Notes: a model not told the origin generated them from the letters alone. DNA of 64,000 bases from Candidatus Eiseniibacteriota bacterium (GCA_016178685.1 JACOSU010000081.1:722-64721), one strand, 5' to 3'; shown: positions 7,183-53,054, numbered from the stretch's first letter. Program-made: numbers and translations.

Positions 7183-7214
7183 CGAACCCCGCAACGCACC
7201 TTTCACCCTCCCGA

Positions 7215-9346: not shown

Positions 9347-9410
9347 GCCGCACCTCTGCGCCACGGCCCATCGCGGCGCCGGATCCGCGGCCCGGGATCG
9401 GGAAGACGCC

Positions 9411-15693: not shown

Positions 15694-15760
15694 CGGAAGC
15701 GATCCGGCATGCGCTGAAGCTTGCGAAGCGCGGCGTGCCGCCCTCGCCCGGGATGCGGCC

Positions 15761-17374: not shown

Positions 17375-18219
17375 TCACCGGTTGCGGATCGGCATCACCG
17401 GCGCCTCCGGCTTCATCGGCAGCCATGCCGTGGCGCGATTCTCCGCGCGCGAAGGTTGCCGTTCATCGCTTCGAGATGCCGGGCGCGATCGAGAGCCGCG
17501 AATTCGAAGGCCTCGACGTTCTGATCCATGGCGCGCTGGTCGAGTACGGCCCCGCGCATCGCGACGCCGATGCGACGAACCGCGCCGGCGCGGAACGCGT
17601 GATCGAGATCGCGCGCCGCCACGGCATCCGCGTGATCTTTCTCTCCACGCTCTCGGCCCACGCGGACGCCCGGTCGCACTACGGCCGGAACAAGCTCGAG
17701 CTCGAGCGGCTGTTCGATCCCGATCGGGACTGCATTCTGCGTCTGGGGCTGGTGCTCGGACAGGGCGGGCTGTTCGGCAACATGGTCGGCATGATCCGCA
17801 GCGCGTCGTTCATTCCGCTGCCCGATGGCGGAAAGCAGCCCATCCAGACGCTGTGGATGGAGGACCTGCTCGATGTGTTCGAGCGGGTCGCCACACGTGG
17901 CATCGCCGGCGGGTACGCTCTCGCGACCGCCGAGGTCACCACCATGCGCGAACTCTACGAAACCGTGATCGCGGGCCTCGGCGTCAAGCGAACGCTGGTT
18001 CCCGTGCCGCTCGCGCTGGTCGGAGCCGGCGTCGCCGTGCTCGAGGCGTTGCGCATCCCGTTCGGAATCAACAGCGAGAACGTGCTCGGCATCAAGTGCC
18101 TGCGCGCGTACGACCTTGCACTCGACCTCGCCGCGCTCGGGATCACGCCGCTGCCGCTGCGCGAGTCGGTGGCGCGGCTGCTGACGATGGAGAGCGACCG
18201 AAAGAGAGAGAGAGCCTAG
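17364..18219 (+). CDS. NAD-dependent epimerase/dehydratase family protein, apparently interrupted by a +1 frameshift at about 17445..17454. It is either a pseudogene or a sequencing error.
   Basis: The Rossmann N-terminus MATDHRLRIGITGASGFIGSHAVARFSAR is in frame 0. The rest of the protein (KVAVHRFEMPG...LDVLIHGALVEYG...NKLELERLF...) is in frame +1, inside the artefactual 16249..18219 ORF. The shift lies in a GCGCGCG run. Confidence 0.5.
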
Positions 18220-18230
18220 CGAAGCTTCGC
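18219..18230. terminator. Perfect 12-bp palindrome gcgaagcttcgc directly after the epimerase stop, between convergent genes. It is a candidate bidirectional terminator hairpin or a protein-binding palindrome.
   Basis: Seen directly in the sequence. The convergent minus-strand gene stops at 18241. No T-run follows, so assignment as an intrinsic terminator is weak. Confidence 0.25.
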
Positions 18231-18240
18231 CGTGCGGGTC

Positions 18241-19893
18241 TCAAGGATCGAGCATGCGCGTACCCGCCCCGGGGCGCGCGGCGAAGTCAATTCCGGGCGG
18301 AGAGGCGGCGGGAAGCCGCACGTCGTTTCGCACCAGCAGCACGAGCCCCCTGTCGTGAGGAGAATCGGGCCAGAAGGAATGGACCCGGTAGCTGCGCTCG
18401 AACCACGGTCGCTCCGCCGAGAGCAGGCCCAGCCAGGCTCCTTTCGAGCTGCCGTAGAGAGCGATCAGTTCCGGGTTTCGCCGACGAACCTCGGCAGCCA
18501 GCAGCGCATAGCCCGCCCCGCGGTGGTACAGGCGCGCGAGCAAGCGGTCGGTGAGGCCGAACAGATCGATGATCGGCAGCTCCGACTGATAGCCGAGTCC
18601 TCCGATGTCATTCGCGGCCAGACGGCTCCCCGGCGGCGCCTGGACGCGCAGCCAGTCCCCGAGCGGCATGTGCGCCCGGTGAATGTTGTTCGAGTTGTCA
18701 ACGACGTAGGCCGGCCCGCACTGATCGTGAGGGGATAGAGCGCGCGCGTTTTCATGGAACGCGAGTCCCGCCCAGACCACACCGAGAGCGATCGCCCCAC
18801 GACCCGCACGGAATTCCCGGCGGGGCAGGAGCGCCTCCCACAGTGAATTCAGTCCGGTCGCGACACATGCCACCCATAGGGGCAGGATGTGAACGTAGAA
18901 GCGCAGACGAAGCACGTCCCCGCCCGCGAGCACGACGTAAGCCAGAAACGACGCCACGGCGCCGAACAGAAATCGCAGGGGTGTCGTGCGCGCGCGCGTG
19001 ACGGCGAGCGCCAGCAGAACCAGCAGCACGACGAGAACGCCCGCATCCGCGGCGAAGTCCCCGATCGAGGCCAGGCCCCGGTAAATCCGGGGCGCGTTCA
19101 GCGCGGTCTTGGCGTAGAACGTGTTCGGAAGAAAGTCCCCGTAGTAGCTCCAGCGCCAGATCCAGTAGGGAACCGCAAGCACCCCGCAGACGGCGGCCCA
19201 CGCCATCGGTCTCTGAAGCCGGCTGGCGCCCCGCGACGGTGCAACCAGCAGCGCGGTCCAGGCGATCGCCGCGAACAGAATCCCTTCGGGTCGCGCGAGG
19301 ATCAGCAGCCCGAAGAGAAGGGCGCTCACCGGTCGGGCATGATGCGCGCGATCTTCGGCGGCAAACGCGAGTGCCGCCCAGCTCAGGATCGCAGCGAACA
19401 GCGGCGCATCCATGCCGGCCACCGCCCACGCCGCGTAGAGCGGGCTCAGGGCGAGCAGCAGCGGGGCGAGCTTCGCCGCCCGCTCTCCGAGCCCCATCGA
19501 CCGGACCAGCTGATGGACCGCCGGGAGCGTGGCGATCGCCGACGAGATTCCCAGCACCTTCGCCGCGAGTTCGATCTGAATTCCGAGATGCCGGGCGAGC
19601 GAGAGCAACGAGATCCAGAGGAAGCACGTGTAGCCCTCCACGTGGTCTCCCGGCTGGTAGATCGGCCCCAGCCCGTTCGCCCAGTTGCGGGCGAACTGGA
19701 ATGCGATGAACGCGTCGTCCACCGTGAAACGCCAGTAGAGCGAGGCCTGCACGAGCAACAGCGCGCACGCGGCGATGACCGCGGTCCATCCCCTCCCGCT
19801 CGGCGAAAGCGCGGCCCGGAAACCCCACGCGGCGAGCGCGGTCGCGGCCAGCAGTCGGGCGAGAAACGGGTAATTGATCCACGAGAGACCCAT
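18241..19893 (-). CDS. Polytopic membrane protein, probably a GT-C-like glycosyltransferase (arabinofuranosyl/mannosyltransferase-like fold).
   Basis: Starts MGLSWINYPFLARLL. The first loop, RFTVDDAFIAFQFARNWANGLGPIYQPGDHVEGYTCFLW, carries a DD motif as in GT-C enzymes. There are more than 10 TM helices and a C-terminal soluble domain. Confidence 0.5.
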   Translation of the reverse strand: MGLSWINYPFLARLLAATALAAWGFRAALSPSGRGWTAVIAACALLLVQASLYWRFTVDDAFIAFQFARNWANGLGPIYQPGDHVEGYTCFLWISLLSLARHLGIQIELAAKVLGISSAIATLPAVHQLVRSMGLGERAAKLAPLLLALSPLYAAWAVAGMDAPLFAAILSWAALAFAAEDRAHHARPVSALLFGLLILARPEGILFAAIAWTALLVAPSRGASRLQRPMAWAAVCGVLAVPYWIWRWSYYGDFLPNTFYAKTALNAPRIYRGLASIGDFAADAGVLVVLLVLLALAVTRARTTPLRFLFGAVASFLAYVVLAGGDVLRLRFYVHILPLWVACVATGLNSLWEALLPRREFRAGRGAIALGVVWAGLAFHENARALSPHDQCGPAYVVDNSNNIHRAHMPLGDWLRVQAPPGSRLAANDIGGLGYQSELPIIDLFGLTDRLLARLYHRGAGYALLAAEVRRRNPELIALYGSSKGAWLGLLSAERPWFERSYRVHSFWPDSPHDRGLVLLVRNDVRLPAASPPGIDFAARPGAGTRMLDP

Positions 19894-19969
19894 CGCGCGA
19901 CCTCGCGGGACGGCATGAGAGAGAGTCCGGGTTCGGCGACGATCCGCCGTCGCGGCCATCGAGTCTAAA

Positions 19970-21463
19970 TCACTTCTCCCGCATCGGTGAAGCAGACCTC
20001 CCCGCCCGGACCGCGCGCCGGGAACGCGGCAGATCCTTCAGGATCGCCACGGCAATCTCTCGGCACAGCCGAGGACTGTAGTGCGTGAAGTCCACGTAGC
20101 AGGAGTTACAGCCCCGGTCCGCGTCCGAAATGTCGTAGAAATGCGGCAGTTCACCGGCGGCGATCGCGGCGCGCACGGTGTCGCGCATCGCGGCGAAGTA
20201 GCGGTACATGGGATCCCGGTCATAGTGCACGGGATCGCGATGAAACGCGTTAGAGGGCGAGAGCGGCCCGAGCGGCTGCAGAAACACTTCGAAGTCGAAT
20301 CCGTACGCCGCAGCAATCCGGTCGAGGAAACGGCCGTTCATCGAGTAGTAGGCCAGGATCTTGGTCTGATACCGGTGGACGTCCCTGGCCGCACCATCGA
20401 AATCGGGGGCCAGCCGCGCGTGGGCGCGATAGTGCAATAGCGGGTCCACATGGTAGAGGGCGGAAGGCACGTCGAGATCCGCATCGCGGTCGAGCTCCGA
20501 GTTTGGAATCCGCCGCTCCCGTCCGCTCTCGATCCCCGTGAGAAGCGCATCGAGCAGCGGCAGGCGCCTCACGATGAAGGAGGCGGGCGGGTGCTGCGCG
20601 CTCGAGATGTTGAAGCCCCAGCCATAGGCGTTGGAGAGACGGGACGGCGACTCCGCAGGCGCGAAGGGCACCTCATGCATTCGGGTAAAGTCGTTGAGAC
20701 CATCAACGAAGATCACCCGAGACGGCCGGTATCCCTTCTTGAGCAGCAGCAGCAGCTTGTCAATCTCAAGGTTCTGGTGGTAGGCCTCCACCGCGAAGTT
20801 GAGGTAGGTCGCCCCGGAGTCCAGCTCGTTGAGATACGCCGCGATGGTCTCGTCATCGGTGACCGCGTGGCCAAACGCGGTCGAGCCTCCCATCACCCAG
20901 GTCGCACCGTCGATCTTCTCCCGCGCGTTGCGAGCATTCACGAAGCGCGTGTATCGCATGTTTTCCAGACCCACGTTGTAGAACCGGGACGTCACCGGGC
21001 CCTCCATGAACTCAAGCGTCGGGTGCCAGGTGAGGTTTGGGGGTTGGAGCAGCAACTGGATTTCCTCGTCGGTGTGCCCCCCCATCAGGGCGCGGAACTG
21101 GCCGGGGTGCCTCGCGTGCATCTCCTCGACCGACACGAAGTTTGAAGCAGGCGCGGCACGCGGTGAACGCAGCACGAAGGCGGCGAGATTCGCGAGACCG
21201 AAGAGGAGAAGCGTATTAAAGGTCGAAAGCGCCACCGCCACGTAGAGGTTCCCGGCCCCCGCGAGCGGCGGCGCGCGACGCCTCGCGAGGAGAAAGATCG
21301 TGCCGAGAGTGATCGCGGCTGTCTCGAAAACCCAGATGAGCGTCGTGGTCGACTGGCTCAACCTGCCGTCCGGGCTGAACGCGCGGGCGAGCAGCCACGG
21401 GTTGCAGAGGATCCCAACGAGGATGAGGAACCACCCGACGAAACGCAGCCACCGATGGTGCAC
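19970..21463 (-). CDS. Membrane-anchored SGNH/DltD/AlgJ-like protein, a putative polysaccharide O-acyl transfer or esterase component.
   Basis: A single N-terminal TM (WLRFVGWFLILVGILC) is followed by a large soluble domain with GGSTAFGHAV and VIFVDGLNDF motifs. The call is tentative. Confidence 0.45.
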   Translation of the reverse strand: MHHRWLRFVGWFLILVGILCNPWLLARAFSPDGRLSQSTTTLIWVFETAAITLGTIFLLARRRAPPLAGAGNLYVAVALSTFNTLLLFGLANLAAFVLRSPRAAPASNFVSVEEMHARHPGQFRALMGGHTDEEIQLLLQPPNLTWHPTLEFMEGPVTSRFYNVGLENMRYTRFVNARNAREKIDGATWVMGGSTAFGHAVTDDETIAAYLNELDSGATYLNFAVEAYHQNLEIDKLLLLLKKGYRPSRVIFVDGLNDFTRMHEVPFAPAESPSRLSNAYGWGFNISSAQHPPASFIVRRLPLLDALLTGIESGRERRIPNSELDRDADLDVPSALYHVDPLLHYRAHARLAPDFDGAARDVHRYQTKILAYYSMNGRFLDRIAAAYGFDFEVFLQPLGPLSPSNAFHRDPVHYDRDPMYRYFAAMRDTVRAAIAAGELPHFYDISDADRGCNSCYVDFTHYSPRLCREIAVAILKDLPRSRRAVRAGRSASPMREK

Positions 21464-21859
21464 AGCAGTCTCCCCTCAGGTGTAGAAACGGCCTTACACG
21501 CACCTGCGTGGCAAGTTGACGATGCAGCCGGGCTGGACGAGGTCCGGGTACGCAGGACCCGGAGGATTTCGTTCAGCGCCTGTCGAACGTCGCACCACGG
21601 CCACCCCGCCCGTCGGAGCGACGCGAGGGCTTCGGAATCATCGGCTCGAGGATATTCCACGGTTCGTCGGTGAGGTCCGTGGCCCCCTGCTCGGCGCCAG
21701 CCATGACGCATTCGGGGAGCAGGCTACCTCAACTACCGCTGCCGGACCATGCGAGCGCTGCTGGCCGACCTCCTCCGCCGGCTCGAGACGCGGTTCTCGA
21801 CCGGGGAGGAGTACGCCCTTGCAGCCTGACCTCAGCTTCACCGTTTCGGGCGAAGTGAT

Positions 21860-22980: not shown

Positions 22981-25167
22981 TCAGGTCGAAGCGAACGGGA
23001 AGTGCGTGTCCATGAGCACCACGCGGCGCTCGGCGATCGAACGCCGCGCCGCGATCAGCGCCTGCGCCGCGACCACGAAGCTCTCGGTGTGATCCGGGGC
23101 GCCGCCCGCTCGCGAGAACTGGGCGGCCATCGCTTCGAGCATCGCCTTCTGCCCCAGATCCGGCTGAAGCTTCGAGGTTTTTCCGTCCGATGCGCCGCCG
23201 CGCAGCGTGAGCGAGCGGAATCCCGAGATGCGCGCCGAACGGCCGCCGCCCTGGATGTCGATGGTTTCGCGCTCCCAGCCCCGCTGGCTGCCGCACACGT
23301 AATGCACCGCGCCCAGGCCGCCGTTCGCGAAACGCATCTGGATCGCCCAGCTTTCTTCGCGATGCCCGGGATCGGGGGTCGCGAGCGCGTGCATTTCGAC
23401 CGGCAGGCTCTGCTGAAAATGAATCGCGAGATCGATGAAGTGGCACACGTCGCCGAACAGGATGCCGCCTCCAACCGACGGATCCTGGTACCAGCTGTCG
23501 GACGGAATCCCGGCGGCGCGCACGGTGCACGTCACCTGCCGCACCGGCACGCCCTCGAAGTGAACGAGCGCGCGGCGGCTGAGCGGCGCGAAGCGGCGGT
23601 TGTGCCCCAGCCACAGCGTGGGTCCGCCTTCGGCATGGCGCGCGAGCAGGGGCAGGATGGGATCGAGCTGTTCGCCCGAGAGCGCGAGCGGTTTCTCGAC
23701 GTACACGTGCTTGCCGGCTGCGAGCGCCTCGCACGTCAGGCGCGCGTGACTGTCGTGGCGCGTGGCGATCGCGATCGCGGTGATCTCGGGATCGCGCATC
23801 AGCTCGCCGGCGTCGGTGGTGGCGATGCGGAACCCGTAGCGCTTCGCGAGCGTTTCGGCGTTCATGCCCTTCGTGGTGCAGATCGCTTCGAGGCTCAGGC
23901 CGTCGAGCGCGGCGAGGTGCGGCAGAATCATCGACTTCGCGTAATTGCCGGCGCCGATCATGCCGAGCCGGACCGTTGCGCGCGCTCTCGTGCTCTCGAA
24001 GCGTACGGTGCGCGTCTCAGTCCCGGGCGCCGCGGCTTCGGCTTCGGGATACTCGAACACGATCCCGACCGCCGAGGCCAGCTCCCCGCCCGCAATTCGG
24101 TCAAACACGCCTATCGCCTCGCCGAACGGAAAGCGATGCGTGATCAGGCGCGCGAGGTCGAGCCGGCCCTGCGCGATCAGATCGAGGAACGCCGCCATGT
24201 TGCGATTCGCGGTCCAGCGCACGTATCCGATCGGGTAGTCCCTGCCGCGCGCCAGATACTCGGCGTCGAACATGCCCGCTCCCATCGCGCGGCTGAACCG
24301 GAAATCGATCTCCTTGCCGAACCAGGTGCGCCATTCGAGCTCGATCTGCGTGTTGCCCAGGCACACCACGCGCCCGCGGTCGCGCACCAGCTGCGCCGCC
24401 ATCTCGACCGGCTGGTTGCTGCGCGTCGAGGTGGTGAGCAGCACCGCGTCCACGCCTGCGCCGGCCGTCATGCGGAGCGCATGGGGCAGCGCTTCGTCCG
24501 CCGATGACGCGCACGCCGCCTCGGCTCCGTTCGCGATCGCGAGCGCGCACTTGGAGGCATCGAGGTCCACGCCCATCACGCGGCAGCCGTTCGCGCGGCA
24601 TAGCTGCACCAGGAACTGGCCGAGCAGCCCGAGCCCGATGATCGCGACGCTCTCGCCGAGTTCGAGCCGGGCCTGGCGCACCGACTGGAGCGCGATTGCG
24701 CCGATCGCGCTCGAACTCGCGGCCTCGAGGCTCACGCCCGCCGGCACCGCCACCACCAGATTGCGCGGCACCGCGTTGTACTCGGCATGGGTCGCGAGGC
24801 CTTCGCCGATGCACGCCACGCGGTCGCCGACCCGGAACTCGTCGACCTGCGATCCCACCGAACTCACCGTTCCCGCGCAGCTGTAGCCCAGCGTGGTCGG
24901 AGCCTTGAGACGCTCCTGCACCTTTCGCACGGTGGGCATCAGCCCCTGGTCGCGCAGCGTCTCGATCACGTGGCGCACCTGGTCGGGGCGCTCCCTGGCT
25001 TTTTCGGCCAGGTTCATGCGCGCCTGAGTGACCTTCATCTTTTCGGTCCCGACGCTCACGAACGAATAATGCGTGCGCACCAGCACGTCACCGGGGCCGA
25101 CGTTCGGCAGCGGAACGTCGCCCGCTTCCAGCCGGCCGTCTCGGAGGTACTGGCGGATCTGCTTCAA
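22981..25167 (-). CDS. Bi-domain oxidoreductase: an N-terminal Zn-dependent alcohol dehydrogenase (MDR) domain fused to a C-terminal Gfo/Idh/MocA NAD(P)-dependent oxidoreductase domain.
   Basis: The N-terminal part has VGPGDVLVRTHYSFVSVGTE, GDRVAC and IIGLGLLGQF. The C-terminal part has LGMIGAGNYAKSMILPHL, EKPLALS, FDSHA-like region. This fusion is known from EPS loci. Confidence 0.8.
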   Translation of the reverse strand: MKQIRQYLRDGRLEAGDVPLPNVGPGDVLVRTHYSFVSVGTEKMKVTQARMNLAEKARERPDQVRHVIETLRDQGLMPTVRKVQERLKAPTTLGYSCAGTVSSVGSQVDEFRVGDRVACIGEGLATHAEYNAVPRNLVVAVPAGVSLEAASSSAIGAIALQSVRQARLELGESVAIIGLGLLGQFLVQLCRANGCRVMGVDLDASKCALAIANGAEAACASSADEALPHALRMTAGAGVDAVLLTTSTRSNQPVEMAAQLVRDRGRVVCLGNTQIELEWRTWFGKEIDFRFSRAMGAGMFDAEYLARGRDYPIGYVRWTANRNMAAFLDLIAQGRLDLARLITHRFPFGEAIGVFDRIAGGELASAVGIVFEYPEAEAAAPGTETRTVRFESTRARATVRLGMIGAGNYAKSMILPHLAALDGLSLEAICTTKGMNAETLAKRYGFRIATTDAGELMRDPEITAIAIATRHDSHARLTCEALAAGKHVYVEKPLALSGEQLDPILPLLARHAEGGPTLWLGHNRRFAPLSRRALVHFEGVPVRQVTCTVRAAGIPSDSWYQDPSVGGGILFGDVCHFIDLAIHFQQSLPVEMHALATPDPGHREESWAIQMRFANGGLGAVHYVCGSQRGWERETIDIQGGGRSARISGFRSLTLRGGASDGKTSKLQPDLGQKAMLEAMAAQFSRAGGAPDHTESFVVAAQALIAARRSIAERRVVLMDTHFPFAST

Positions 25168-25476
25168 TGAAGCCTCGAGTTCTGGGGGTGAGGGCGCCTC
25201 GGCCGGGGGGCCGTGGAAGGCGAACGTGGGGTCGGCGGCGGGCGCACGTCGGTTGAGTTTATCACGTGCGCGTGCGCCAGTTCCACCGCGCGGCGAGGCG
25301 GGTTCGGGCGCGCAAATGGTAGAATGGAGAGCCCGCAGGCTCCCTGCGGGGCCACATCAACGCGAAGCCCGGGCCCCACCCCGTGCACGCCCCGCCCGAC
25401 GCAATCCGGCGGTTGCGCGCGGCGGCGTGTTGCGCCACCTTGGGCGGGATCGGAAGTGCTGCTCGAGGAGGCGTTC

Positions 25477-27195
25477 GTGAGTACGGGCGGAAGACGCTTT
25501 TTCGTGTCCCTCGCATTGATCGTGGCAATCGGCGCCGCGCTCCGGATCCCGCTCGTCGCCCTGGCCGCGGACTCCTACCGGCTGACCGAGTCGTTCAACA
25601 TCGAGGAAGTCGAAAACATCCGGCTCTCGACCGGCATGCTGCACAAGCACGACCCGAATCCCCACGCCTTCGAATATCCGAGCCTGTTCTACTACCTGAG
25701 CTTGATCGTCGAAGCGCCGCTGCGGGCCCCAAGTCACGACGCGTGGCGCGCGTATCTGGTCGGCGTGCGGGGGCTCTCCCTCCTGTTCGGCCTCGGCATC
25801 ATCTGGAACGTCGCGCTGCTGGCCCGACGGCTGGCCGGGGATCTGGCCGGGCTGCTCGCGGCGGCGCTGATTCTGTTCGACCGCACCATGATCGACATCT
25901 CGACACTGGCCAAGCCCAACGCCGCGCAGGTCTTCTTCGTGCTCGCGGCGTTTCTCGCATTTCTCTCGCTGGCCCACAGGCCGCGCGTCTCGACCGCGTC
26001 TTTCGCAGCCGCGCTGCTGGCCTTCGCCACCGCCAGCAAGTGGCTTGGCGCGCTCGCGCTCGCGCCTCTCGCGCTCGCGCCGCTGCTGTCCTCTCCCTCG
26101 ACGGCGCCGCGCGGTCTCCGCCGCCTGCTCGACACGCTGCGGGCCGGTCTCCGCGCGCCGGTCGCGCCGTGGCAGGTCGCTCTTCCGGTCGCCACGTTCG
26201 TCGTTCTGTTTCTCGCCATGGTGCCGTTCTCCATTCTATCGCCGCGCGAATTTGGCTTCGGCCTCGCGCAGACCTTCACCGCTCAGTCGGTCCACCAGCG
26301 CGCGGTTTCGATCTGGACGCCGCTGGCGTTCGCCATCCAATCGCTGGGGCCGCTCGGCGCTCTGTTCGCAGGGCTGGGCCTGCTCGCGGCGCTCGCGCGG
26401 CTCGCGCGGTGGGAAGCAACTCGCGCCGAACGCGGACTTCTTCTGGTGCTTGGATGGGCTCTGGCCTATGGCGCACTGCTGATCCTGGTGTTCGTGAAGC
26501 TGCCCTCCTACATCGATCTGTGGATTCCGTTCCTGGCGATTCTCGCAGGCGTTGCGCTGGCGGGCCCTCGCGGCCGGTTCGGCTCCCCGGTCCTTCGCGC
26601 CTCCGCGGTGGCGGCGGCCCTGATCGCCGGCCTGCTCTCGAACGGCGGGTACGCCGCGGCCCGCGCCCTGACCGCGCGCGTGGCCGACACCCGGATCTCC
26701 GCGGGGCAATGGATGGATGCTCACGCCGCGGCCGGAGATTCGATCCTCGCCGATCTGGGCGCGTTCGTTCCGGATCGGCTCACGCACGTGCGCTGGAACG
26801 GGTGGGGCAGCCCGCCGCGCACGGTGTACGACGAGAATGCGACGTGGGGATGGGATCCGGTGTGGCCCGAATGGTATGGAGGGCACCGCCGGCTGTCGTT
26901 CGAGAACGTCAAGTGGAAGGACCCGATGATGCTCCTCGCCGAGCGGCCGCGCTGGATCGTCACGTCGGATGCGTGGTCACAGATTCGTGCGCGACCTTCC
27001 CACGCGAGTGAGACCGCCGCGCCCGAGTACGACGCGACGCTCGCGGACGGCAGCGCCGGGTATGCGCTCTGCGCACGATTCGACCCCGCCCCGGCCCCCG
27101 CGAACCCGTGGAAACTGCTCGCCGCGCTTCGTCCCCCGCGTTCCGCGGTTCAGTATGGCGGTCCGGATCTGCGGATCTACGAGCGGGTGCGCTAG
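25477..27195 (+). CDS. GT-C family membrane glycosyltransferase (ArnT/PMT_2-like).
   Basis: GTG start with GGAGG at 25466..25470. First TM then the loop LTESFNIEEVENIRLSTGMLHKHDPNPHAFEYPSLFYYLSLIV. About 12 TM helices and a C-terminal periplasmic domain. Confidence 0.65.
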   Translation: MSTGGRRFFVSLALIVAIGAALRIPLVALAADSYRLTESFNIEEVENIRLSTGMLHKHDPNPHAFEYPSLFYYLSLIVEAPLRAPSHDAWRAYLVGVRGLSLLFGLGIIWNVALLARRLAGDLAGLLAAALILFDRTMIDISTLAKPNAAQVFFVLAAFLAFLSLAHRPRVSTASFAAALLAFATASKWLGALALAPLALAPLLSSPSTAPRGLRRLLDTLRAGLRAPVAPWQVALPVATFVVLFLAMVPFSILSPREFGFGLAQTFTAQSVHQRAVSIWTPLAFAIQSLGPLGALFAGLGLLAALARLARWEATRAERGLLLVLGWALAYGALLILVFVKLPSYIDLWIPFLAILAGVALAGPRGRFGSPVLRASAVAAALIAGLLSNGGYAAARALTARVADTRISAGQWMDAHAAAGDSILADLGAFVPDRLTHVRWNGWGSPPRTVYDENATWGWDPVWPEWYGGHRRLSFENVKWKDPMMLLAERPRWIVTSDAWSQIRARPSHASETAAPEYDATLADGSAGYALCARFDPAPAPANPWKLLAALRPPRSAVQYGGPDLRIYERVR

Positions 27196-27347: not shown

Positions 27348-27938
27348 ATGGAGGAGACGGTGAAGCAGAAGCTTCCCCACTTTCGGGGGGCATTGGTCGA
27401 ATTGTTCGCCCGGATTCGGTGGAAGCTGCTGATGATGATGCCGAACGAGGGCCGGATTCGCGTGTTGCGGCAGCACGGCGTCCGCATCGGCGAGGATTGT
27501 CTGATCTACACCACACTGTTCTCGACCGAGCCGTATCTGGTCGAGATCGGCGACCACGTCGCGATCTCCTCGGGGACCAGCTTCGTCACGCATGACGCCT
27601 CGGGCTGGGTCTTCAGGGAGCACCCCAAGATGGATGTCTTCGGACGCATCCACGTGGGGAACAACACGTTTTTCGGCACCAGCTGCACGGTGCTGCCCGG
27701 CACGCAGATCGGTTCGAATTGCATCATCGGGTCGGGCTCGGTGGTGCGCGGGGTCATTCCCGACGATTCCGTCGTGTTCGGGAATCCAGCCCGGGTCATC
27801 ATGAAGACTTCATTGATGAAACAGCTGCTCGTGAATCACAAGCACCGGCTCGACACCAAGTACCTTCCAGCGAAGGACAAGGAAAAGGTTCTGCGGCGCC
27901 ACTTCGGGCTCCCGGAGACCGGATCCAGGGGGGAATGA
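27348..27938 (+). CDS. Hexapeptide-repeat acetyltransferase (WcaF/WbbJ-like).
   Basis: IGEDCLIYTTLFSTEPYLVEIGDHVAISSGTSFVTHD...IHVGNNTFFGTSCTVLPGTQIGSNCIIGSGSVVRGVIPDDSVVFGNPARV. Confidence 0.75.
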   Translation: MEETVKQKLPHFRGALVELFARIRWKLLMMMPNEGRIRVLRQHGVRIGEDCLIYTTLFSTEPYLVEIGDHVAISSGTSFVTHDASGWVFREHPKMDVFGRIHVGNNTFFGTSCTVLPGTQIGSNCIIGSGSVVRGVIPDDSVVFGNPARVIMKTSLMKQLLVNHKHRLDTKYLPAKDKEKVLRRHFGLPETGSRGE

Positions 27939-27941
27939 GTC

Positions 27942-28190
27942 TTGGCCTCGGATACCATGACGGAGATCCACGACTACGTGCGGATGGAGTTCGCGCCGGA
28001 GCGGGCATCGGTCGCTCCCGATGAGAATCTTCTGGCCCAGGGGATCGTCGATTCGCTCGGCATTCTCAAGCTCGTGACGTTTCTCGAGCAGCGATTCGGG
28101 TTCGAGGCCGCCGATGACGACCTGGTCCCCGAGAATTTCTCGACGCTCGAGATGATCCGGGATTTCGTGGAGAGGAAGAGGAAGCCCTGA
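27942..28190 (+). CDS. Acyl carrier protein (phosphopantetheine-binding).
   Basis: 77-82 aa, acidic, with the 4'-PP attachment motif LAQGIVDSLGILKLV. The start is TTG at 27942 (GGGGGGA 5 nt upstream) or ATG at 27957. Confidence 0.75.
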   Translation: MASDTMTEIHDYVRMEFAPERASVAPDENLLAQGIVDSLGILKLVTFLEQRFGFEAADDDLVPENFSTLEMIRDFVERKRKP

Positions 28191-28192
28191 CG

Positions 28193-29338
28193 ATGGATCT
28201 CTCGTTCACGCCCGAGCAGCTCGCCCTGCGCGGCGAAGTCGTCAAGTTCGCCCGCAAGGAGCTGAACGCCGGGCTCGTCGAGCGCGACCACCAGCAGGCG
28301 TTCTCACGCGAGGGCTGGGACAAGTGCGCCGCGATGGGAATCCATGGTCTGCCGTTTCCGCGCGAGCATGGCGGGTCGGGGGCCGACGTCCTGACCACGA
28401 TGCTGGCGATGGAGGGGCTGGGCTACGGCTGCCGGGACAGCGGGCTGATCTTCGCGATCAACGCCCAGATGTGGGCCGTGCAGATGCCGATCCTCAACTT
28501 CGGCACCGAGGAGCAGAAGCGCAGGTACCTGCCCCGCCTGTGCGGCGGCGAATGGATCGGCGCCCACGGCATGACGGAGCCGGGCTCGGGTTCCGATTCG
28601 TCGGCGCTCGCGACCACCGCGGTCCGACGCGGACACCGCTGGATTCTGAACGGAACCAAGACCTTCGTGACGAACGCGCCGATCGCCGACGTGTTCGTGG
28701 TGTTCGCCACCACCGACCGAGCGCGGGGCTTCATGGGCGTGACCGGCTTCGTGGTGGAGAAGGGCGCCCCCGGCTTTCACGTGGGCAAACCGATCGAAAA
28801 AATGGGCCTCAAGACCTCGCCGATGGCGGAGCTCGTCTTCGAAGACTGCGAGCTCCCGCTCGACGCCCTGCTCGGAGAGGAGGGCGGCGGCACGCGGGTG
28901 TTCAGTTCCTCCATGGAGTGGGAGCGCGGCTGCCTGCTCGCGAGTTCCCTGGGCGCCATGGAGCGCCAGCTCGAGACCTGCGTCGATTACGCCACGAACC
29001 GCCGGCAATTCAACCGCCCGATCGGCAAGTTCCAGTCGGTCGCGAACAAGATCGTGGACATGAAGGTGCGTCTCGAGACGTCGCGTCTCCTTCTTTACAA
29101 GCTCGCGTGGCTCAAGTCGGCCGGCGGAGAGGCCGTGATCGACGCCGCGATCGCGAAACTCCACTTGAGCGAGTCGTGGGTCCAGTCGTGTCTGGACGCG
29201 ATCCAGATTCACGGAGGCTACGGCTACACGACCGAGTTCGAACTGGAACGTGACCTGCGCGATGCGATCGCCGGCCGGATCTATTCGGGAACCTCCGAAA
29301 TCCAGCGGAACATCATCGCCGCGCAGCTTGGATTGTGA
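28193..29338 (+). CDS. Acyl-CoA (acyl-ACP) dehydrogenase family flavoprotein.
   Basis: GAHGMTEPGSGSD, ILNGTKTFVTNAP, QIHGGYGYT and the C-terminal catalytic E region. 381 aa, full ACAD architecture. Confidence 0.85.
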   Translation: MDLSFTPEQLALRGEVVKFARKELNAGLVERDHQQAFSREGWDKCAAMGIHGLPFPREHGGSGADVLTTMLAMEGLGYGCRDSGLIFAINAQMWAVQMPILNFGTEEQKRRYLPRLCGGEWIGAHGMTEPGSGSDSSALATTAVRRGHRWILNGTKTFVTNAPIADVFVVFATTDRARGFMGVTGFVVEKGAPGFHVGKPIEKMGLKTSPMAELVFEDCELPLDALLGEEGGGTRVFSSSMEWERGCLLASSLGAMERQLETCVDYATNRRQFNRPIGKFQSVANKIVDMKVRLETSRLLLYKLAWLKSAGGEAVIDAAIAKLHLSESWVQSCLDAIQIHGGYGYTTEFELERDLRDAIAGRIYSGTSEIQRNIIAAQLGL

Positions 29339-29356
29339 CGCCAGGGACCTAGGGAC

Positions 29357-30940
29357 GTGACGAGCTTCCTGCTCCAGCACCTGCTGATGGACGCCGCCCG
29401 GCGCGCGCCGGATGCGGCGGCGGTCCGCTTCGAAGAGGAGACGCTGAGCTACGGCGAGCTCGACCGGCTCTCCGATCGGCTGGCCCACGCGCTCGCCGCG
29501 CACGACGTGCGGCGCGGCGACCGGGTCGCGATCTACCTGCCGAAGTCCACGGCCTCGCTGATCGCGATCCATGGCATTCTCAAGGCCGGAGGCGTCTACG
29601 TGCCGCTCGATCCCGGCGCCCCGGTCCAGAGGCTCGCCTACATCCTGGAGGACTGCGGCGTGCGATGCGTCGTCGCGGCCAGCGCGAAAGCCGCCGCGAT
29701 CCGCACCATGGTCGAGGGGGGCGCGCGGGTGCGGACGGCGGTGTTCACCGACGATGGAGGTGATGCGGGCCTCGGAGACCTCGGGATTCAGACGGTGCCG
29801 TGGGCGCGCGTGCTCGGCGGCGCGGAGGTGGGGCCGCCCGTGATCGCGTCGATCGCGACCGATCTCGCCTACATCCTTTATACCTCGGGTTCCACCGGCA
29901 CTCCCAAGGGAGTGATGATTTCGCACCTCAACTCGCTCACGTGCGTCCACTGGGCCGCCGCGGAGTTCGGCGTCACGAAGGCCGACCGGCTCTCGAGCCA
30001 CGCGCCGTTTCATTTCGACCTTTCGATTCTCGACCTGTTCGTGGCGATGAAGGCCGGAGCGAGCGTGGCGCTGGTGCCGGATGGTACCTCGACGTTCCCG
30101 ATCCGGCTCGGCCAGTGGATCGAGAAGAACCAGATCACGATCTGGTATTCGGTCCCCTCGATCCTGACCCTGCTGCTGCTGAAGGGCCGGCTCGACCGGC
30201 TGGATCTCTCCTCCCTGCGCCATGTGCTGTTCGCGGGCGAAGTGTTCCCGAACAAGTACCTGGCCGCCGCGATGCGCGCGGTGCCGCACGCGGAGTTCGT
30301 CAACCTTTACGGCCCGACCGAGACCAACGTCATCACGTTCTATCGGGTGCCGGCCGCCCGCGGGGAGCAGGGCGAACCGATCCCGATCGGGCGGCCGTGC
30401 GCGAACGGCGACGTATTCGTGGTCGGCGAGGATGGGAAGGTGGTCACGGAGCCGGGCGTGACGGGCGAGCTGTTCGCGCGCGGCACGACGGTGGCGCTGG
30501 GTTACTGGGGCGACCCTGAGAAAACCGCTCGCGGTTTCCTGCAGAACCCGCATCAGATGGATTTCGCGGAGCGCGTCTATCGCACCGGGGACATCGTGTC
30601 GCTCGGGACCGACGGGAACTACCGGCTGCTGGGCCGCCGCGATCGCATGATCAAGAGCCGCGGCTACCGCATCGAGCTGGACGAGATCGAGATCATCCTC
30701 AACGCGCATCCTTCGATCCGGGAGGCGGCGGTGGTCGCGGTCCCGGACGAGTTGAGCGGGAACCGAATCCTGGCTTTCGTGGCGGGCACCGACGGCCGGG
30801 AGCTGAACGCCGGATTCCTGCGCGACTACTGCCTCGAGAGACTGCCGCGCTACATGGTGCCGGAGAGCTTCAATCTGCTCGACGAGCTTCCGAAGACTTC
30901 AACCGGGAAAATCGACCGCGCGCGGCTCGCGCGCGGATAG
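29357..30940 (+). CDS. AMP-dependent adenylating enzyme (amino-acid adenylation / acyl-CoA ligase-like; resembles the exosortase-associated AMP-ligase and DltA).
   Basis: LSYGELD, YILYTSGSTGTPKGV (A3 core), NLYGPTET, YRTGD and PKTSTGKIDR (A10 Lys). Confidence 0.85.
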   Translation: MTSFLLQHLLMDAARRAPDAAAVRFEEETLSYGELDRLSDRLAHALAAHDVRRGDRVAIYLPKSTASLIAIHGILKAGGVYVPLDPGAPVQRLAYILEDCGVRCVVAASAKAAAIRTMVEGGARVRTAVFTDDGGDAGLGDLGIQTVPWARVLGGAEVGPPVIASIATDLAYILYTSGSTGTPKGVMISHLNSLTCVHWAAAEFGVTKADRLSSHAPFHFDLSILDLFVAMKAGASVALVPDGTSTFPIRLGQWIEKNQITIWYSVPSILTLLLLKGRLDRLDLSSLRHVLFAGEVFPNKYLAAAMRAVPHAEFVNLYGPTETNVITFYRVPAARGEQGEPIPIGRPCANGDVFVVGEDGKVVTEPGVTGELFARGTTVALGYWGDPEKTARGFLQNPHQMDFAERVYRTGDIVSLGTDGNYRLLGRRDRMIKSRGYRIELDEIEIILNAHPSIREAAVVAVPDELSGNRILAFVAGTDGRELNAGFLRDYCLERLPRYMVPESFNLLDELPKTSTGKIDRARLARG

Positions 30941-32095
30941 GCGCCGACCGGCCCGCTGCTTCCGCACATGCGCGACCACGCGGTCGAGGATCTCGCTCAG
31001 CCGATCGTAGATCATATCGGGCGCATGATTCGAGGTCACGTAGGAGCGAGCGCGCGCTCCCGCGGCGCGGCGCGCCTCGGGGTCCGAGAGCAGCCGGCCG
31101 ACTTCGCGCACGAGTTGCGGGTACTCCGAGACCAGGGCTCCCAGGCCCTGCCGCGTGACGAGCGCGTCCGGATCCACCGCGGACACGGTGGGCAGCCCGC
31201 ACGACCACGCCTCGAGCATCACGTTCGAAAAACCTTCGACCGGCGAAGTGTGCACCAGCAGCGACGCTCCCGCGAACAGCTCCGCGATCCCGGTGGGATC
31301 GACGAAACCGCGCACCGAGAGATTCGGGGTTCGATTCGCGGCCTCCTGCGCTCGGCCCCAGTGCTCCCGCGTGAGTGGCGGCGGTGGGATCACGCCCGCC
31401 ATCACGAAGCGGCGATCCGGGAACTCGCGCGCAAGATCGGTGAACCACTGCGGTCGCTTGATGTCCTTGTACGTGCCGAGCCACACCACCGTGCCGTCCT
31501 GCCCGGAATCGACCGCGTGCGCGGGAATTTCGACCACGTTGTGCAACACCTGGCTGTCGAGTCCGAACTCGAGGCGCAGACTCCGGCCCTGCGCTTCGGT
31601 CTGGGCGATCCGCAGATCGGCCTGTTTCAGCGCCCGCCGGTACCACACGCGATCGAGGATGCTCGGCTGCCGGGGCAGACTCGCGATCACCTCGTAGTCG
31701 CTCGCGACGTGCAGCACGAATCCCGCGCGGCGGGAGCGCGCCATGTCGAACGTGATCCCGGACGGCACTCCGGAGCCGTTCACGTAATACACCTCGGCGT
31801 CGGCGCGACGCAGAGCCGCAATCGAACGAGTCAGCCGCGGGTGGAAGAACCGCACCACCGGGATTGGGCTCACGAGCCGGAACGAGCGCAGCACGAGGAT
31901 GCCGTCGATCACGAGGCGCTCGGGTTGTCCGAAATCGCACGTCACGATGCTCACGTCGAAGCCGCGCGCCTGGAGCCCGCGCGCCAGCTTCAGCTGCTGG
32001 GTTTCCGCGCCGCCCGCGAATTCGACCCGCGGGCCGCTCCCGAGCAGCGGGAACAGGTACTCGCAGTTGAAACAGATGCGGCCCCGCCCGCTCAC
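30899..32095 (-). CDS. GT4 family glycosyltransferase.
   Basis: GT-B C-terminal domain with the EGFSNVMLEAWSCGLPTVSAVD motif. GTG start overlaps the upstream stop (GTGA). The 3' end overlaps the convergent adenylation gene by ~40 bp. Confidence 0.75.
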   Translation of the reverse strand: MSGRGRICFNCEYLFPLLGSGPRVEFAGGAETQQLKLARGLQARGFDVSIVTCDFGQPERLVIDGILVLRSFRLVSPIPVVRFFHPRLTRSIAALRRADAEVYYVNGSGVPSGITFDMARSRRAGFVLHVASDYEVIASLPRQPSILDRVWYRRALKQADLRIAQTEAQGRSLRLEFGLDSQVLHNVVEIPAHAVDSGQDGTVVWLGTYKDIKRPQWFTDLAREFPDRRFVMAGVIPPPPLTREHWGRAQEAANRTPNLSVRGFVDPTGIAELFAGASLLVHTSPVEGFSNVMLEAWSCGLPTVSAVDPDALVTRQGLGALVSEYPQLVREVGRLLSDPEARRAAGARARSYVTSNHAPDMIYDRLSEILDRVVAHVRKQRAGRRLSAREPRAVDFPG

Positions 32096-33216
32096 GAAGC
32101 CCACCGCTCGAGCGCGGCTTCGAGTCGCGGGCGCACCTGCTCCCACGCGTACTCCAGGGCGGTGCGTCGTCCGCCTGCCGCGAGCCGGTCCGCGAGCTCC
32201 GGATCCCGGATCAGCCGCTGAAACGCCGCCTTGAGCGCGGCGGGATCATCGGGCGGGATCAGGAGTCCGTTCTCCTCGTGGCGCACCAGGTCGCGAACCC
32301 CCGCGACCGGCGTCGCGATCACCGGCCGGCCGAACGCCATCGCTTCGAGCAGCACGTTCGGCAGCCCCTCGCCCTTGCGCGCCGCCAGCACCACGAAGGC
32401 GCTCTCCCGATAGAGAGTCGCCAGGCGCTCACGCTCCACGAATCCTTCGAAGCGCGCGGGCACGCCGCGCGCTCGAGCCAGCGCCTCGAGCCGCGCGCGC
32501 TCCGGCCCGGTGCCGGCCACCACCAGCGGGAACGCGAGTCCGGCCGAGGCATCGATCACGGTGTCCATGCCCTTGTCGCGGATCAGCCTCCCGACCGCGA
32601 GCACGCATGAGCCCCGGCGAGCGAGCGTGTCTGCCCGGGGAAGATCGAGCCCGTTCGGCACCACCTCGAGATGCGCTTCGACCGTTCGCCGCGTCCCGGG
32701 CGCGAAGCGCTCCATCTCGCGCAGCAGGGCGGCCCGGTTCTCCTCGCTCTGCACCAGCACGCCGTCCGCCTCCCGCCAGACGCGCGGGCCGACCCAGCGC
32801 GCCCACCGGGAATCCTCCAAGCGATACTCCCCCTCGCCGCGGATCCAGACCACCGCCGGGATACCGAGCCGTCTCTTGAGTCGCACGCCGGCATAGCCGC
32901 TGATGAAGGTCTGGAAGCACAGCACGACATCGGGCCGCGGCTTGAGCGCCGTCACCGCGCGCGTGATCGCCGAGAGGTCCCGCACCGCGCGCCACAGCGG
33001 CACTCCCGAGAGCGGCAGGCGCATCACGGTGAATCCGTCGCGTCGCTCGGTGCCGGGCGGCGCGGGCGGCTCCCGCCGCGTCACTACGGTCACGCGATGG
33101 CGGTCCGAGAGGCGGCGCGCCCAGCACTCGGCCTGATGCTCGGCTCCGCCCAGCGCGCCGGGTGGAAAACGCCCGATCAGGATCGCGATGTGGAGCGGTC
33201 GGATCGAATCGTTCAC
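32092..33216 (-). CDS. GT4 family glycosyltransferase.
   Basis: N-terminal HIAILIGRFPPGALGGAEHQ. C-terminal GEGLPNVLLEAMAFGRPVIATPVAGVRDLVRHEENGLLIPPDD. GTGA overlap with the upstream methyltransferase. Confidence 0.8.
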   Translation of the reverse strand: MNDSIRPLHIAILIGRFPPGALGGAEHQAECWARRLSDRHRVTVVTRREPPAPPGTERRDGFTVMRLPLSGVPLWRAVRDLSAITRAVTALKPRPDVVLCFQTFISGYAGVRLKRRLGIPAVVWIRGEGEYRLEDSRWARWVGPRVWREADGVLVQSEENRAALLREMERFAPGTRRTVEAHLEVVPNGLDLPRADTLARRGSCVLAVGRLIRDKGMDTVIDASAGLAFPLVVAGTGPERARLEALARARGVPARFEGFVERERLATLYRESAFVVLAARKGEGLPNVLLEAMAFGRPVIATPVAGVRDLVRHEENGLLIPPDDPAALKAAFQRLIRDPELADRLAAGGRRTALEYAWEQVRPRLEAALERWAS

Positions 33217-38400: not shown

Positions 38401-38516
38401 GGGGGGAGTTCCGATCAGCCCGCGCGGCCGCGGCGGGACACCTGGCGGGCGGCGGTTCGCTCGCATAGTATTGAAGCACTCATGCACATCCATTCGACCC
38501 GTTTTCCCTCACGATC

Positions 38517-39725
38517 GTGAAGCTCAACACCCCGGGGACGCTCGCTTCGGACGGCGGCACGCCGGTGCGTTCCACGTTTCTCCCGCTCGCCCTGCCGTCG
38601 ATCGGCGAATCCGAAAAGCGCCGCGTCATCGAGACGCTGGAGTCGGGCTGGATCACGACCGGCCCGCGCTCCCACGAGCTGGCGACCCGGGTCGCGGAGC
38701 TGGCCGGCGCGCGTCACGGCCTCGCGGTGAATTCGGCGACCGGCGCCCTCCACCTCGCGCTCGCGGCGCTCGGCGCGGGCGCGGGCGACGAGGTCATCAC
38801 CTCCACGTACACGTTCGCGGCGTGCGTCAACGTGATCGAGCACGTCGGCGCGACCCCGGTGCTGGTGGACGTCGAGGCCGACACCCTTTCGCTCGATCCC
38901 CAGGCGGTCGAGGCCGCGATCACGCCGCGCACCCGTGTGATCCTCCCGGTCGATTACGCCGGGCATCCGTGCGCGATCGAGGAGATCGTGGCGCTGGCCC
39001 GCTCGCGCGGGTTGCGCGTGGTCGAGGATGCCGCGCATGCGCTGGGAGCGGCGTGGCGCGGTCGTCCGATCGGCTCGTTCGCGGACATCACCGCGTTCTC
39101 GTTCTACGCCACCAAGAACCTGACCACCGGCGAGGGCGGCGCGGCGGTCACGGACGACGAAGCGCTGGCCGAGCGCATGCAGGTGCTGTCGCTGCACGGC
39201 ATGAATCGAGACGCGTGGAAGCGTTACGCGGACACCGGATCGTGGTACTACGAAGTCGTCGCGCCGGGATTCAAGTACAACCTGAGCGATGTGCTGGCGG
39301 CGATCGGGCTCGGCCAGCTCGAACGCTTCACCGAGATGCAGCGGCGCCGTTCCGCGCTGGCGGTGCGCTACCACGCCGCTCTCGCCGAGGTGCCCGAGGT
39401 GCGGCGCCCCATCACGCGCGAGGGAGCCACTCACGCGTGGCACCTGTATCCGGTCGCGCTCCAGCTCGAACGCCTGAGCTGCGATCGCGCGCGCTTCGCG
39501 CGCGAGCTGCGAGCCGAGAACATCGGGTCTTCCGTGCATTTCATTCCGATCCACTTCCATCCCCATTTCCGCGACACGCTTCCCTACCGGGCCGGCGCCT
39601 TTCCGGTGGCCGAGGAGGCCTACCGCCGCGCGCTCACGCTGCCGCTCTACCCGGCCATGACCGACCGCGACGTCGACGACGTGGTGGCCGCGGTTCGCAA
39701 GATCGCGCGGCATTTCCGGGCCTGA
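38517..39725 (+). CDS. DegT/DnrJ/EryC1/StrS family PLP-dependent sugar aminotransferase.
   Basis: TGPRSHELATRVAELAG, DEVITSTYTFAA and FSFYATKNLTTGEGG (PLP-binding Lys). Length ~400 aa. Confidence 0.85.
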   Translation: MKLNTPGTLASDGGTPVRSTFLPLALPSIGESEKRRVIETLESGWITTGPRSHELATRVAELAGARHGLAVNSATGALHLALAALGAGAGDEVITSTYTFAACVNVIEHVGATPVLVDVEADTLSLDPQAVEAAITPRTRVILPVDYAGHPCAIEEIVALARSRGLRVVEDAAHALGAAWRGRPIGSFADITAFSFYATKNLTTGEGGAAVTDDEALAERMQVLSLHGMNRDAWKRYADTGSWYYEVVAPGFKYNLSDVLAAIGLGQLERFTEMQRRRSALAVRYHAALAEVPEVRRPITREGATHAWHLYPVALQLERLSCDRARFARELRAENIGSSVHFIPIHFHPHFRDTLPYRAGAFPVAEEAYRRALTLPLYPAMTDRDVDDVVAAVRKIARHFRA

Positions 39726-53030: not shown

Positions 53031-53054
53031 GCCCGACGCCTGAACGTCCATTCC

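Follow-up and report, generated by a model that had tools for sequence, protein, structure and literature searches.

A predicted proline-oxidation cassette headed by a left-handed beta-helix acyltransferase in an exopolysaccharide locus of Candidatus Eiseniibacteriota

A stretch of 64,000 nucleotides from a Candidatus Eiseniibacteriota bacterium (GCA_016178685.1, JACOSU010000081.1:722-64721; hereafter the window, meaning the whole stretch that was analysed) carries, within a polysaccharide locus, four adjoining genes for a hexapeptide acyltransferase of the left-handed beta-helix (LbH) type, a small 4'-phosphopantetheine carrier protein, a flavoprotein of the acyl-CoA dehydrogenase (ACAD) fold and a stand-alone adenylation enzyme (A-domain). 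The set raises the question of which acid is activated, what happens to it on the carrier and whether the product reaches the polysaccharide. The original prediction, made from the sequence alone, described a non-canonical route for attaching an unsaturated acyl or aminoacyl group to the polysaccharide or to a lipid carrier. The results described below point, with slightly better than even confidence on our part, to a type II (thiotemplated) proline-oxidation set which has been recruited to the exopolysaccharide locus, and whose product would be moved to a sugar by the LbH protein.

The A-domain is predicted from its sequence to be an amino-acid enzyme with L-proline as the substrate. It matched AMP-binding with 300 bits as well as AMP-binding_C, and it passed the amino-acid adenylation model TIGR01733 (389 bits; cutoff 317). 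The best single-domain chain in the PDB was the L-proline ligase PltF (323 bits), and five LgrA entries were also among the alignments. Ten specificity residues, identified by means of the A4-A5 motifs and 64 aligned homologues, gave the proline-type code DLLYLALVIK (D221, L222, L225, Y264, L291, A293, L317, V325, I326 and K518), and Asp235 and Lys517 (GrsA numbering) were retained. This code agrees at seven of eight positions with L(L/F)YLALVC, the consensus of stand-alone L-Pro A-domains (Kadlcik et al., PMC3874040), and is unlike the modular proline code. A literature search for the ten-residue codes themselves (DLLYLALVCK and others) gave no match. The enzyme could be assigned neither to the exosortase A-associated acyl-CoA ligases (TIGR03098; 341.6 bits against a cutoff of 592.35) nor to DltA (291.7 bits, cutoff 476; 279.9 bits, cutoff 559.85). 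The possibility raised earlier that it is an ordinary fatty-acyl-CoA ligase was not borne out, since TIGR01733 was passed and every fatty-acyl-CoA ligase model scored below its cutoff.

The carrier protein is free-standing and has a predicted attachment serine, as expected of a prolyl-oxidation cassette. It matched PF00550 with 26.7 bits (cutoff 20.8) and contains the motif IVDSLGI, in which the serine of the DSL triplet, Ser38 (codon 28053-28055), is the predicted phosphopantetheine site. Its best PDB matches were type II peptidyl carrier proteins, with weak matches to Bmp1-CP, DltC, PigG and PltL. The DltC model gave 24.2 bits (cutoff 68), so that neither DltA nor DltC, the pair to which the cassette had been likened, was recovered above threshold.

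AnaB is the prolyl-ACP dehydrogenase (ACP, acyl carrier protein) of anatoxin synthesis, and it was the best PDB match of the window ACAD (4irn; 466 bits, 52.6% identity), followed by 6cxt_B (343 bits) and PigA (317 bits). True acyl-CoA dehydrogenases in the PDB reached at most 312 bits; AnaB leads 6cxt_B by about 120 bits and the genuine acyl-CoA dehydrogenases by about 155-185 bits. The 6cxt_B chain was deposited as a butyryl-CoA dehydrogenase, and its co-crystallisation with a carrier domain of 77 aa leads us to take it for the prolyl-carrier-protein oxidase Bmp3. Glu244 of the window protein (28922-28924), which lies in the motif MEWERG, aligned with the glutamate of the W-E-R/K motif in AnaB, 6cxt_B and PigA; in AnaB and Bmp3 this conserved glutamate acts as the catalytic base (PMC10849742). 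The top NCBIfam matches were PigA (453.7 bits; cutoff 500) and RedW (446.7 bits; cutoff 650). By this homology the flavoprotein is predicted to be a relative of the prolyl-carrier-protein dehydrogenases and no generic acyl-CoA dehydrogenase. AnaB performs a two-electron oxidation to pyrroline, whereas PltE, RedW, Bmp3 and PigA perform a four-electron oxidation to pyrrole. The neighbour-joining tree cannot tell the two outcomes apart, because AnaB fell inside the clade of the window ACAD, with Bmp3 and PigA outside, and halogenase-linked members were scattered throughout. Of the unsaturated acyl or aminoacyl group proposed originally, the amino-acid-derived version stands, as a predicted dehydroprolyl or pyrrole-2-carbonyl group, whereas an unsaturated fatty acyl group is disfavoured by the proline-type code and the prolyl dehydrogenase homologue.

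The first gene of the cassette could be confirmed as a hexapeptide-repeat protein by PF00132 (47.9 bits; cutoff 27) and PF14602 (34.7 bits; cutoff 27), and its 196-aa product is identical to the NCBI protein 'acyltransferase [Candidatus Eisenbacteria bacterium]'. An identity with NeuD/PglB/VioB (TIGR03570) was rejected at 65.1 bits against a cutoff of 160.8, the C-terminal LbH part alone being covered, and WbbJ was rejected for too low a score. A weak match was obtained to TIGR02353, the terminal LbH domain of Pls/PosA nonribosomal peptide synthetases (NRPS), at 45.7 bits and far under the cutoff.

The linkage of the LbH gene to the cassette was evaluated in related genomes. Among 11 homologues on long contigs whose genomic context was inspected (L138-L148), the order LbH, PP-binding, ACAD and usually AMP-binding, as in the window, was found in eight (L138, L139, L140, L142, L143, L144, L145 and L147), and the LbH gene stood alone in three (L141, L146 and L148). 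At least 120 homologues, 57-100% identical over the aligned part, were collected from the protein database, and a tree of all 120 revealed one clade of mostly 180-200 aa and another of mostly 177-182 aa. Every sampled member of the longer clade, to which the window protein belongs, heads a cassette (10 of 10, with the window and L002 included), and this linkage persists where glycan genes are not nearby. The three sampled members of the shorter sister clade all stand alone, as does the more distant LbH of L085. In the cassettes with a linked LbH gene, the ACADs were 73-85% and the A-domains 60-69% identical to those of the window, and the A-domain code was DLFYLALVIK in five of six and DLFYVALVIK in L140. 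A scan of metagenomes with the window LbH gave just three close matches; all were on short contigs, and one of these had no cassette.

Two of these loci have features of their own. L145, a metagenomic contig, holds two cassettes 3.4 kb apart (1-2619 and 6001-9654), in the orders ACAD-A-carrier-LbH and LbH-carrier-ACAD-A, which are parted by an AsnB-type amidotransferase and a GT4 glycosyltransferase and whose two A-domain codes are DLSYFALVCK and DLFYLALVIK. In L142 (6059-8081, minus strand), genes for an OCD_Mu_crystallin protein of the ornithine cyclodeaminase family and a PALP protein are convergent with the cassette; they could provide proline made from ornithine, or they may instead represent a diaminopropionate pair of the SbnA/SbnB kind.

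Besides the window, nine cassette loci could be compared, and six of them had sugar genes, glycosyltransferases or a flippase-like gene within about 6 kb. In L138, an epimerase/dehydratase gene overlaps the LbH start and is followed by a GT4 gene and a second epimerase; the cassette of L139 lies by a UDP-sugar dehydrogenase, a carbamoyltransferase, a glycosyltransferase and a GDSL protein, and that of L140 by a flippase, NeuB, a CMP-transferase and AsnB. GT4 genes occur by the cassettes of L143 and L145, and a Polysacc_synt-like gene (a faint match) by that of L147. Window genes also travel with the cassette: an orthologue of the adjoining GT4 gene, 65% identical, occupies the same convergent position 3' of the cassette in the metagenomic locus L143, and homologues of the genes at 15641-17371 and 17416-18240 adjoin the cassette of L138. 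The cassette is thus kept as a unit in related loci, often beside glycan genes, in keeping with the original prediction. Homology and synteny likewise agree with its other proposals, namely that the A-domain would load a free carrier protein, that the flavoprotein would tailor the bound intermediate and that the set is associated with glycan assembly.

The window itself is a Wzx/Wzy-type locus with a Bac_transf initiating transferase, three GT2 and two GT4 glycosyltransferases, three PMT_2 proteins, Wzy_C, two Polysacc_synt flippases, Poly_export (Wza) and Wzz/AAA_31 (Wzc-like) proteins. No halogenase, ketosynthase, condensation or thioesterase domain was found in any scanned window open reading frame (ORF). 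There was also no MBOAT or AT3 Pfam match in these ORFs (E up to 1 for ORFs without other matches), in accordance with the earlier remark that an MBOAT protein is absent.

The occurrence of the ACAD, A-domain and carrier protein as a triad was studied in a scan of one genome per species, which gave 271 ACAD relatives, and the best 80 loci were analysed. Their ACADs were 56-82% identical to that of the window and came from more than ten phyla, among them Eisenbacteria, Calditrichota, Desulfobacterota, Bacteroidota, Chloroflexota, Acidobacteriota, Gemmatimonadota, Nitrospirota, Planctomycetota and Actinomycetota. An A-domain homologue lay within 8-9 kb of the ACAD in 62 of the 80, mostly together with a small carrier protein, and the codes across the triad loci were mostly DL(F/L)YLALV(C/I)K. 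Halogenases are classic partners of pyrrolyl-S-carrier proteins, and Trp_halogenase-family genes were present in 16 of the 80 loci. NeuD/PglB/VioB-type LbH N-acyltransferases, unrelated to the window LbH, abut the triad in 12, often with DegT; the one in L033 passed TIGR03570 (173.7 bits; cutoff 160.8), and a second representative fell just short. Other neighbours of the triad included DegT aminotransferases, GNATs, sulfotransferases with APS kinase, AsnB-type amidotransferases and UDP-GlcNAc 2-epimerase.

In 15 of the 80 loci, mostly labelled Gemmatimonadota, there were proteins of about 840 aa whose N-terminal half is polytopic and which end in an SGNH domain; this SGNH part was 34-38% identical to the GDSL proteins of the window. 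One or two of them lie between the ACAD and the carrier and A-domain genes in L031 (11332-16393), L038, L041, L042, L045, L049, L058 and L076, and most such loci have one to three Trp_halogenase-family genes nearby. An identity as MBOATs found no Pfam support. The layout resembles a Dlt/OatA-type export route for a (halo)pyrrolyl group.

A second class of A-domain, with the code DMFNLAMSSK, which is not the proline consensus, was found in about 11 loci, where the ACAD may oxidise another amino acid. These loci (among them L006, L008, L013, L018-L020, L026-L028 and L053) have AnaB-like ACADs 62-68% identical to that of the window, and mostly a conserved 390-aa protein without a Pfam or NCBIfam match; in L028, for example, the A-domain gene is at 15370-16962 and the gene of this protein at 16980-18149. 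Many of them also carry DegT, GNAT or NeuD-type LbH genes.

A tblastn search of plasmids revealed ACADs 57% identical to that of the window in Microvirga sp. VF16 (pMVF16-2; L082) and Streptomyces clavuligerus (pSCL4; L083). In both megaplasmids of these cultured organisms an A-domain and a carrier protein adjoin the ACAD, and additional A-domains close by in pSCL4 suggest an NRPS context. These strains could offer an experimental entry to the ACAD enzyme family.

The logic by which an A-domain, a carrier protein and an ACAD yield a pyrrolyl-S-carrier protein is established (PMC10849742), and a series of four steps can be proposed for the window. Strong homology suggests that the A-domain would activate L-proline and load it as a thioester on the phosphopantetheine of Ser38, and that the AnaB/PigA-type flavoprotein, with Glu244 as the base, would then oxidise the tethered prolyl ring. 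The product would be a pyrroline-carboxyl thioester after removal of two electrons or a pyrrole-2-carboxyl thioester after removal of four; the pyrrole is favoured because a stable substituent would result. The LbH protein would use the acyl-S-carrier protein as the donor, in the manner of LpxA/LpxD with acyl-ACP, and would work on the cytoplasmic side, where either a nucleotide-sugar or a repeat unit linked to undecaprenyl would accept the group at a hydroxyl or an amine. We infer this transfer of the acyl group to a sugar from synteny and from the precedent of LbH enzymes that act on carrier thioesters. The Wzx, Wzy and Wza gene products would flip, polymerise and export the decorated unit.

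Several observations weigh against this model of glycan decoration. Literature searches gave no polysaccharide with pyrrole-2-carboxylate or dehydroproline, and the ACAD lies under both the PigA and the RedW equivalog cutoffs. The sole DegT aminotransferase of the window is 7.5 kb from the cassette, and glycan genes were not seen within about 6 kb of the cassette in L002, L142 and L144. The nearest solved relatives of the LbH protein are the acetyl-CoA-dependent galactoside and maltose O-acetyltransferases, and the linked and stand-alone LbH clades differ at two well-conserved positions alone, D96 and R/K171; a switch of donor to an acyl-S-carrier protein is therefore not evident from the LbH sequence. 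These LbH findings are what one would expect if the protein were an ordinary acetyl-CoA-dependent exopolysaccharide O-acetyltransferase, while the oxidised product was handed off by an SGNH protein or by the Acetyltransf_6 GNAT, or was freed by hydrolysis. The stand-alone sister clade, about 60% identical with nearly the same consensus, would also suit such a division of labour, as would the recurrence near the cassette or the triad of homologues of the two SGNH proteins of the window, seen in L139 and L145 and as the C-terminal part of the approximately 840-aa proteins in loci mostly labelled Gemmatimonadota. We nevertheless rate this explanation as unlikely. The 10 of 10 head-of-operon linkage, seen even without glycan genes, is hard to square with an unrelated acetyltransferase; other LbH lineages have been recruited independently to the same position; and LbH enzymes that act on carrier-protein thioesters exist (LpxA and LpxD), to which the weak match to the Pls/PosA NRPS terminal domain may be added. 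The strict linkage and the independent recruitment argue that the LbH protein handles the carrier-bound product.

It is also conceivable, although we consider it unlikely, that the cassette makes a diffusible small molecule, for instance pyrrole-2-carboxylate in free form, some acylated metabolite or the starter unit of an assembly line whose genes lie elsewhere, and that its siting among glycan genes is incidental. The characterised homologues Plt, Red, Pig, Bmp and Ana all make small molecules, the triad is linked in 16 loci to halogenases typical of secondary metabolism, and the cassette behaves like a mobile unit complete in itself, which also occurs in the non-glycan settings of L002, L142 and L144. 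However, ketosynthase, condensation and thioesterase genes were not identified within 6 kb of the cassette in the window and L138-L145. The window cassette is moreover placed between GT-C and GT4 genes, of which the GT4 gene and two other locus genes co-travel with it, and in other loci the triad has sugar N-acyltransferases of the NeuD type and DegT genes at its sides. A ligase for a fatty acid, or for another acid that is not an amino acid, acting with a beta-oxidation-type dehydrogenase, to give an enoyl-ACP or enoyl-CoA for a lipid or for acyl decoration, appears highly improbable. Models of long-chain-fatty-acid-CoA ligase and of butyryl- and acryloyl-CoA dehydrogenase do match, but all these generic matches remain under the cutoff, whereas TIGR01733 is passed; Asp235, Lys517 and the proline-type code are present, and the distance in bits separating the ACAD from genuine acyl-CoA dehydrogenases stands against it as well.

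Proline oxidation followed by transfer to the glycan thus remains the preferred reading for the window, and a broader proposal can be offered tentatively, as plausible but somewhat short of even. Proline-derived pyrrole-2-carbonyl or dehydroprolyl groups, made on a type II NRPS carrier protein, may be a hitherto unrecognised covalent modification of surface-polysaccharide sugars in many phyla, placed by dedicated acyltransferases, namely the LbH clade described here, NeuD-type enzymes in Acidobacteriota, Nitrospirota and Bacteroidota, and perhaps membrane-SGNH proteins together with halogenation in the loci mostly labelled Gemmatimonadota.

An ORF check confirmed the four cassette genes on the plus strand at the positions claimed earlier, and the ORFs, the Pfam families and the PMT_2/PMT match agree with the description of four contiguous, co-directional genes 3' of a GT-C gene (Table 1). 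The intergenic gaps are 3 bp (LbH/carrier), 2 bp (carrier/ACAD) and 18 bp (ACAD/A-domain), and the G+C content at third codon positions (GC3) of the four frames is 0.83-0.89. An 801-aa antisense ORF (28304-30709, minus strand) covers the ACAD and A-domain genes without a coding-type GC3 pattern, and it is read as a high-GC shadow because of the GC3 of the cassette frames. No clear sigma-70 promoter or terminator bounding the cassette was found. A perfect 9-bp GC hairpin (30916-30936) lies where the A-domain and GT4 genes converge. The GT-C gene matched PF13231 (31.8 bits; cutoff 26.1) and PF02366 (27.0 bits; cutoff 22.7), its product has at least eight hydrophobic segments, and its real start may be internal, perhaps at about 25477.

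Table 1. Cassette genes and other features of the window discussed in the text
Feature	Position	Strand	Family match
LbH (hexapeptide) acyltransferase, 196 aa, first cassette gene	27348-27938	+	Hexapep PF00132
Stand-alone 4'-phosphopantetheine carrier protein, 82 aa	27942-28190	+	PP-binding PF00550
ACAD-fold flavoprotein, 381 aa, predicted L-prolyl-S-carrier-protein dehydrogenase	28193-29338	+	three Acyl-CoA_dh domains
Stand-alone adenylation enzyme, 527 aa, predicted L-proline-specific	29357-30940	+	AMP-binding, AMP-binding_C
PMT_2/PMT GT-C-type polytopic membrane glycosyltransferase, directly 5' of cassette	25213-27195	+	PF13231, PF02366
GT4 glycosyltransferase, convergent with A-domain gene, overlapping its 3' end	30899-32146	-	Glyco_trans_1_4, Glyco_trans_4_4, Glycos_transf_1
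Acetyltransf_6 GNAT	9270-10475		Pfam match
GDSL/SGNH protein with a single transmembrane segment	54834-56021	+	
GDSL/SGNH protein with a single transmembrane segment, paralogue of 54834-56021	60448-61617	-	

Other genes of the window had been drawn into the original prediction. The FemAB-like transferase noted at 9411 corresponds to the Acetyltransf_6 GNAT, and nothing connects this distant gene to the cassette. Two of the three membrane-anchored SGNH proteins could be recovered, and the third (19973-21475) has a sub-threshold match alone. The two GDSL proteins lie 24-30 kb from the cassette, and homologues are close to cassettes in L139 and L145; this recurrent co-location is the sole link to the cassette that was found for the SGNH proteins. 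A NodU/CmcH-type carbamoyltransferase gene (53031-54830, plus strand) lies near two minus-strand genes, 56030-59542 and 59248-60444, which between them encode the small and presumed large subunits of carbamoyl-phosphate synthase. Together with the two GDSL proteins, these genes suggest O-carbamoylation of the same polysaccharide, and genes for a carbamoyltransferase and a GDSL protein adjoin the cassette of L139 as well.

Three PMT_2 GT-C-type homologues (5307-6998, plus; 18244-20037, minus; and the gene 5' of the cassette) are unusual for a Wzx/Wzy cluster. The large polytopic proteins without a family match include those at 2739-4337 and 10795-13113. The gene at 22981-25167 (minus strand) encodes a 728-aa fusion of zinc-ADH-like and GFO/IDH/MocA domains, which weakly matches models of UDP-GlcNAc 3-dehydrogenase and inositol dehydrogenase. 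The DegT aminotransferase (38475-39722) resembles ArnB and PseC, and together with this 728-aa protein it could provide an amino sugar serving as the acyl acceptor.

Literature searches joining prolyl-ACP, AnaB or pyrrole-2-carboxylate with polysaccharides returned no description of such a cassette. The chemistry as far as the thioester is already known, and the novelty is the combination, that is, a prolyl-oxidation cassette headed by an LbH gene in the polysaccharide loci of many uncultured phyla. To our knowledge, thiotemplated pyrrole biosynthesis has so far been described from antibiotics, pigments and toxins only. If the model is correct, this chemistry would be joined to surface-glycan tailoring, two fields that seldom meet, and an aromatic, UV-absorbing and possibly halogenated substituent would be placed on the exopolysaccharide or lipopolysaccharide of widespread soil and sediment phyla, with effects on matrix chemistry, phage and immune recognition, and metal binding. 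It would also explain hundreds of genes annotated merely as 'acyl-CoA dehydrogenase family protein' or 'acyltransferase', and under the multi-phylum proposal the 'pyrrole' chemistry of natural products would be routine in the cell-envelope decoration of uncultured bacteria. The cassette offers a compact four-gene marker for genome mining, a soluble enzyme set and a candidate LbH enzyme for carrier-protein thioesters.

The same three parts as in the window, namely a stand-alone A-domain of the L(L/F)YLALVC type, a stand-alone carrier protein and an ACAD oxidase with the catalytic glutamate, are found in the systems Plt (PltF-PltL-PltE), Red (RedM-RedO-RedW), Pig (PigI-PigG-PigA), Bmp (Bmp4-Bmp1-Bmp3) and Ana (AnaC-AnaD-AnaB). 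Unlike these, the window cassette has no halogenase, ketosynthase, condensation domain or thioesterase on its 3' side, is led by an LbH gene and has glycan-assembly genes as neighbours. In DltABCD, which D-alanylates teichoic acids, and AlmEFG, which places glycine on the lipid A of Vibrio cholerae, an A-domain loads a small free carrier protein with an amino acid destined for a surface glycopolymer or glycolipid. Both lack an oxidation step; Dlt employs the MBOAT protein DltB and the extracellular DltD, and Alm a lysophospholipid-type acyltransferase. The sub-threshold DltA and DltC scores and the lack of an MBOAT match set the window apart from Dlt.

In V. cholerae O1, the hexapeptide LbH transferase RfbO lies beside RfbK/RfbL (WbeK/L), which likewise place a carrier protein and an adenylate-forming ligase in an O-antigen cluster that yields an unusual N-acyl sugar, N-tetronyl-perosamine. 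RfbL is reported to attach 2,4-dihydroxybutanoate either to CoA or to RfbK, the carrier protein (PMC12208996). This system differs in its hydroxy-acid substrate and in having no ACAD-type prolyl oxidase. A precedent for the off-loading is given by LpxA/LpxD and the C-terminal LbH domain of Pls/PosA-family NRPSs, which take the acyl group from the phosphopantetheinyl thioester of a carrier, whereas the window LbH is nearer in sequence to the CoA-dependent MAT/GAT O-acetyltransferases, its Pls/PosA and LpxA/LpxD matches being far below cutoff. The sole established pyrrolyl-sugar ester known to us is that of clorobiocin and coumermycin, in which CloN1-N7 (CouN) move a carrier-bound pyrrole-2-carboxyl group to the 3'-OH of noviose. 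CloN differs in its second carrier protein, in its non-LbH acyltransferases CloN2 and CloN7 and in its acceptor, which is a small aminocoumarin glycoside rather than a polysaccharide repeat unit. Its likeness to the proposed pathway lies in the use of a proline-derived pyrrolyl-S-carrier protein as the donor to a sugar hydroxyl.

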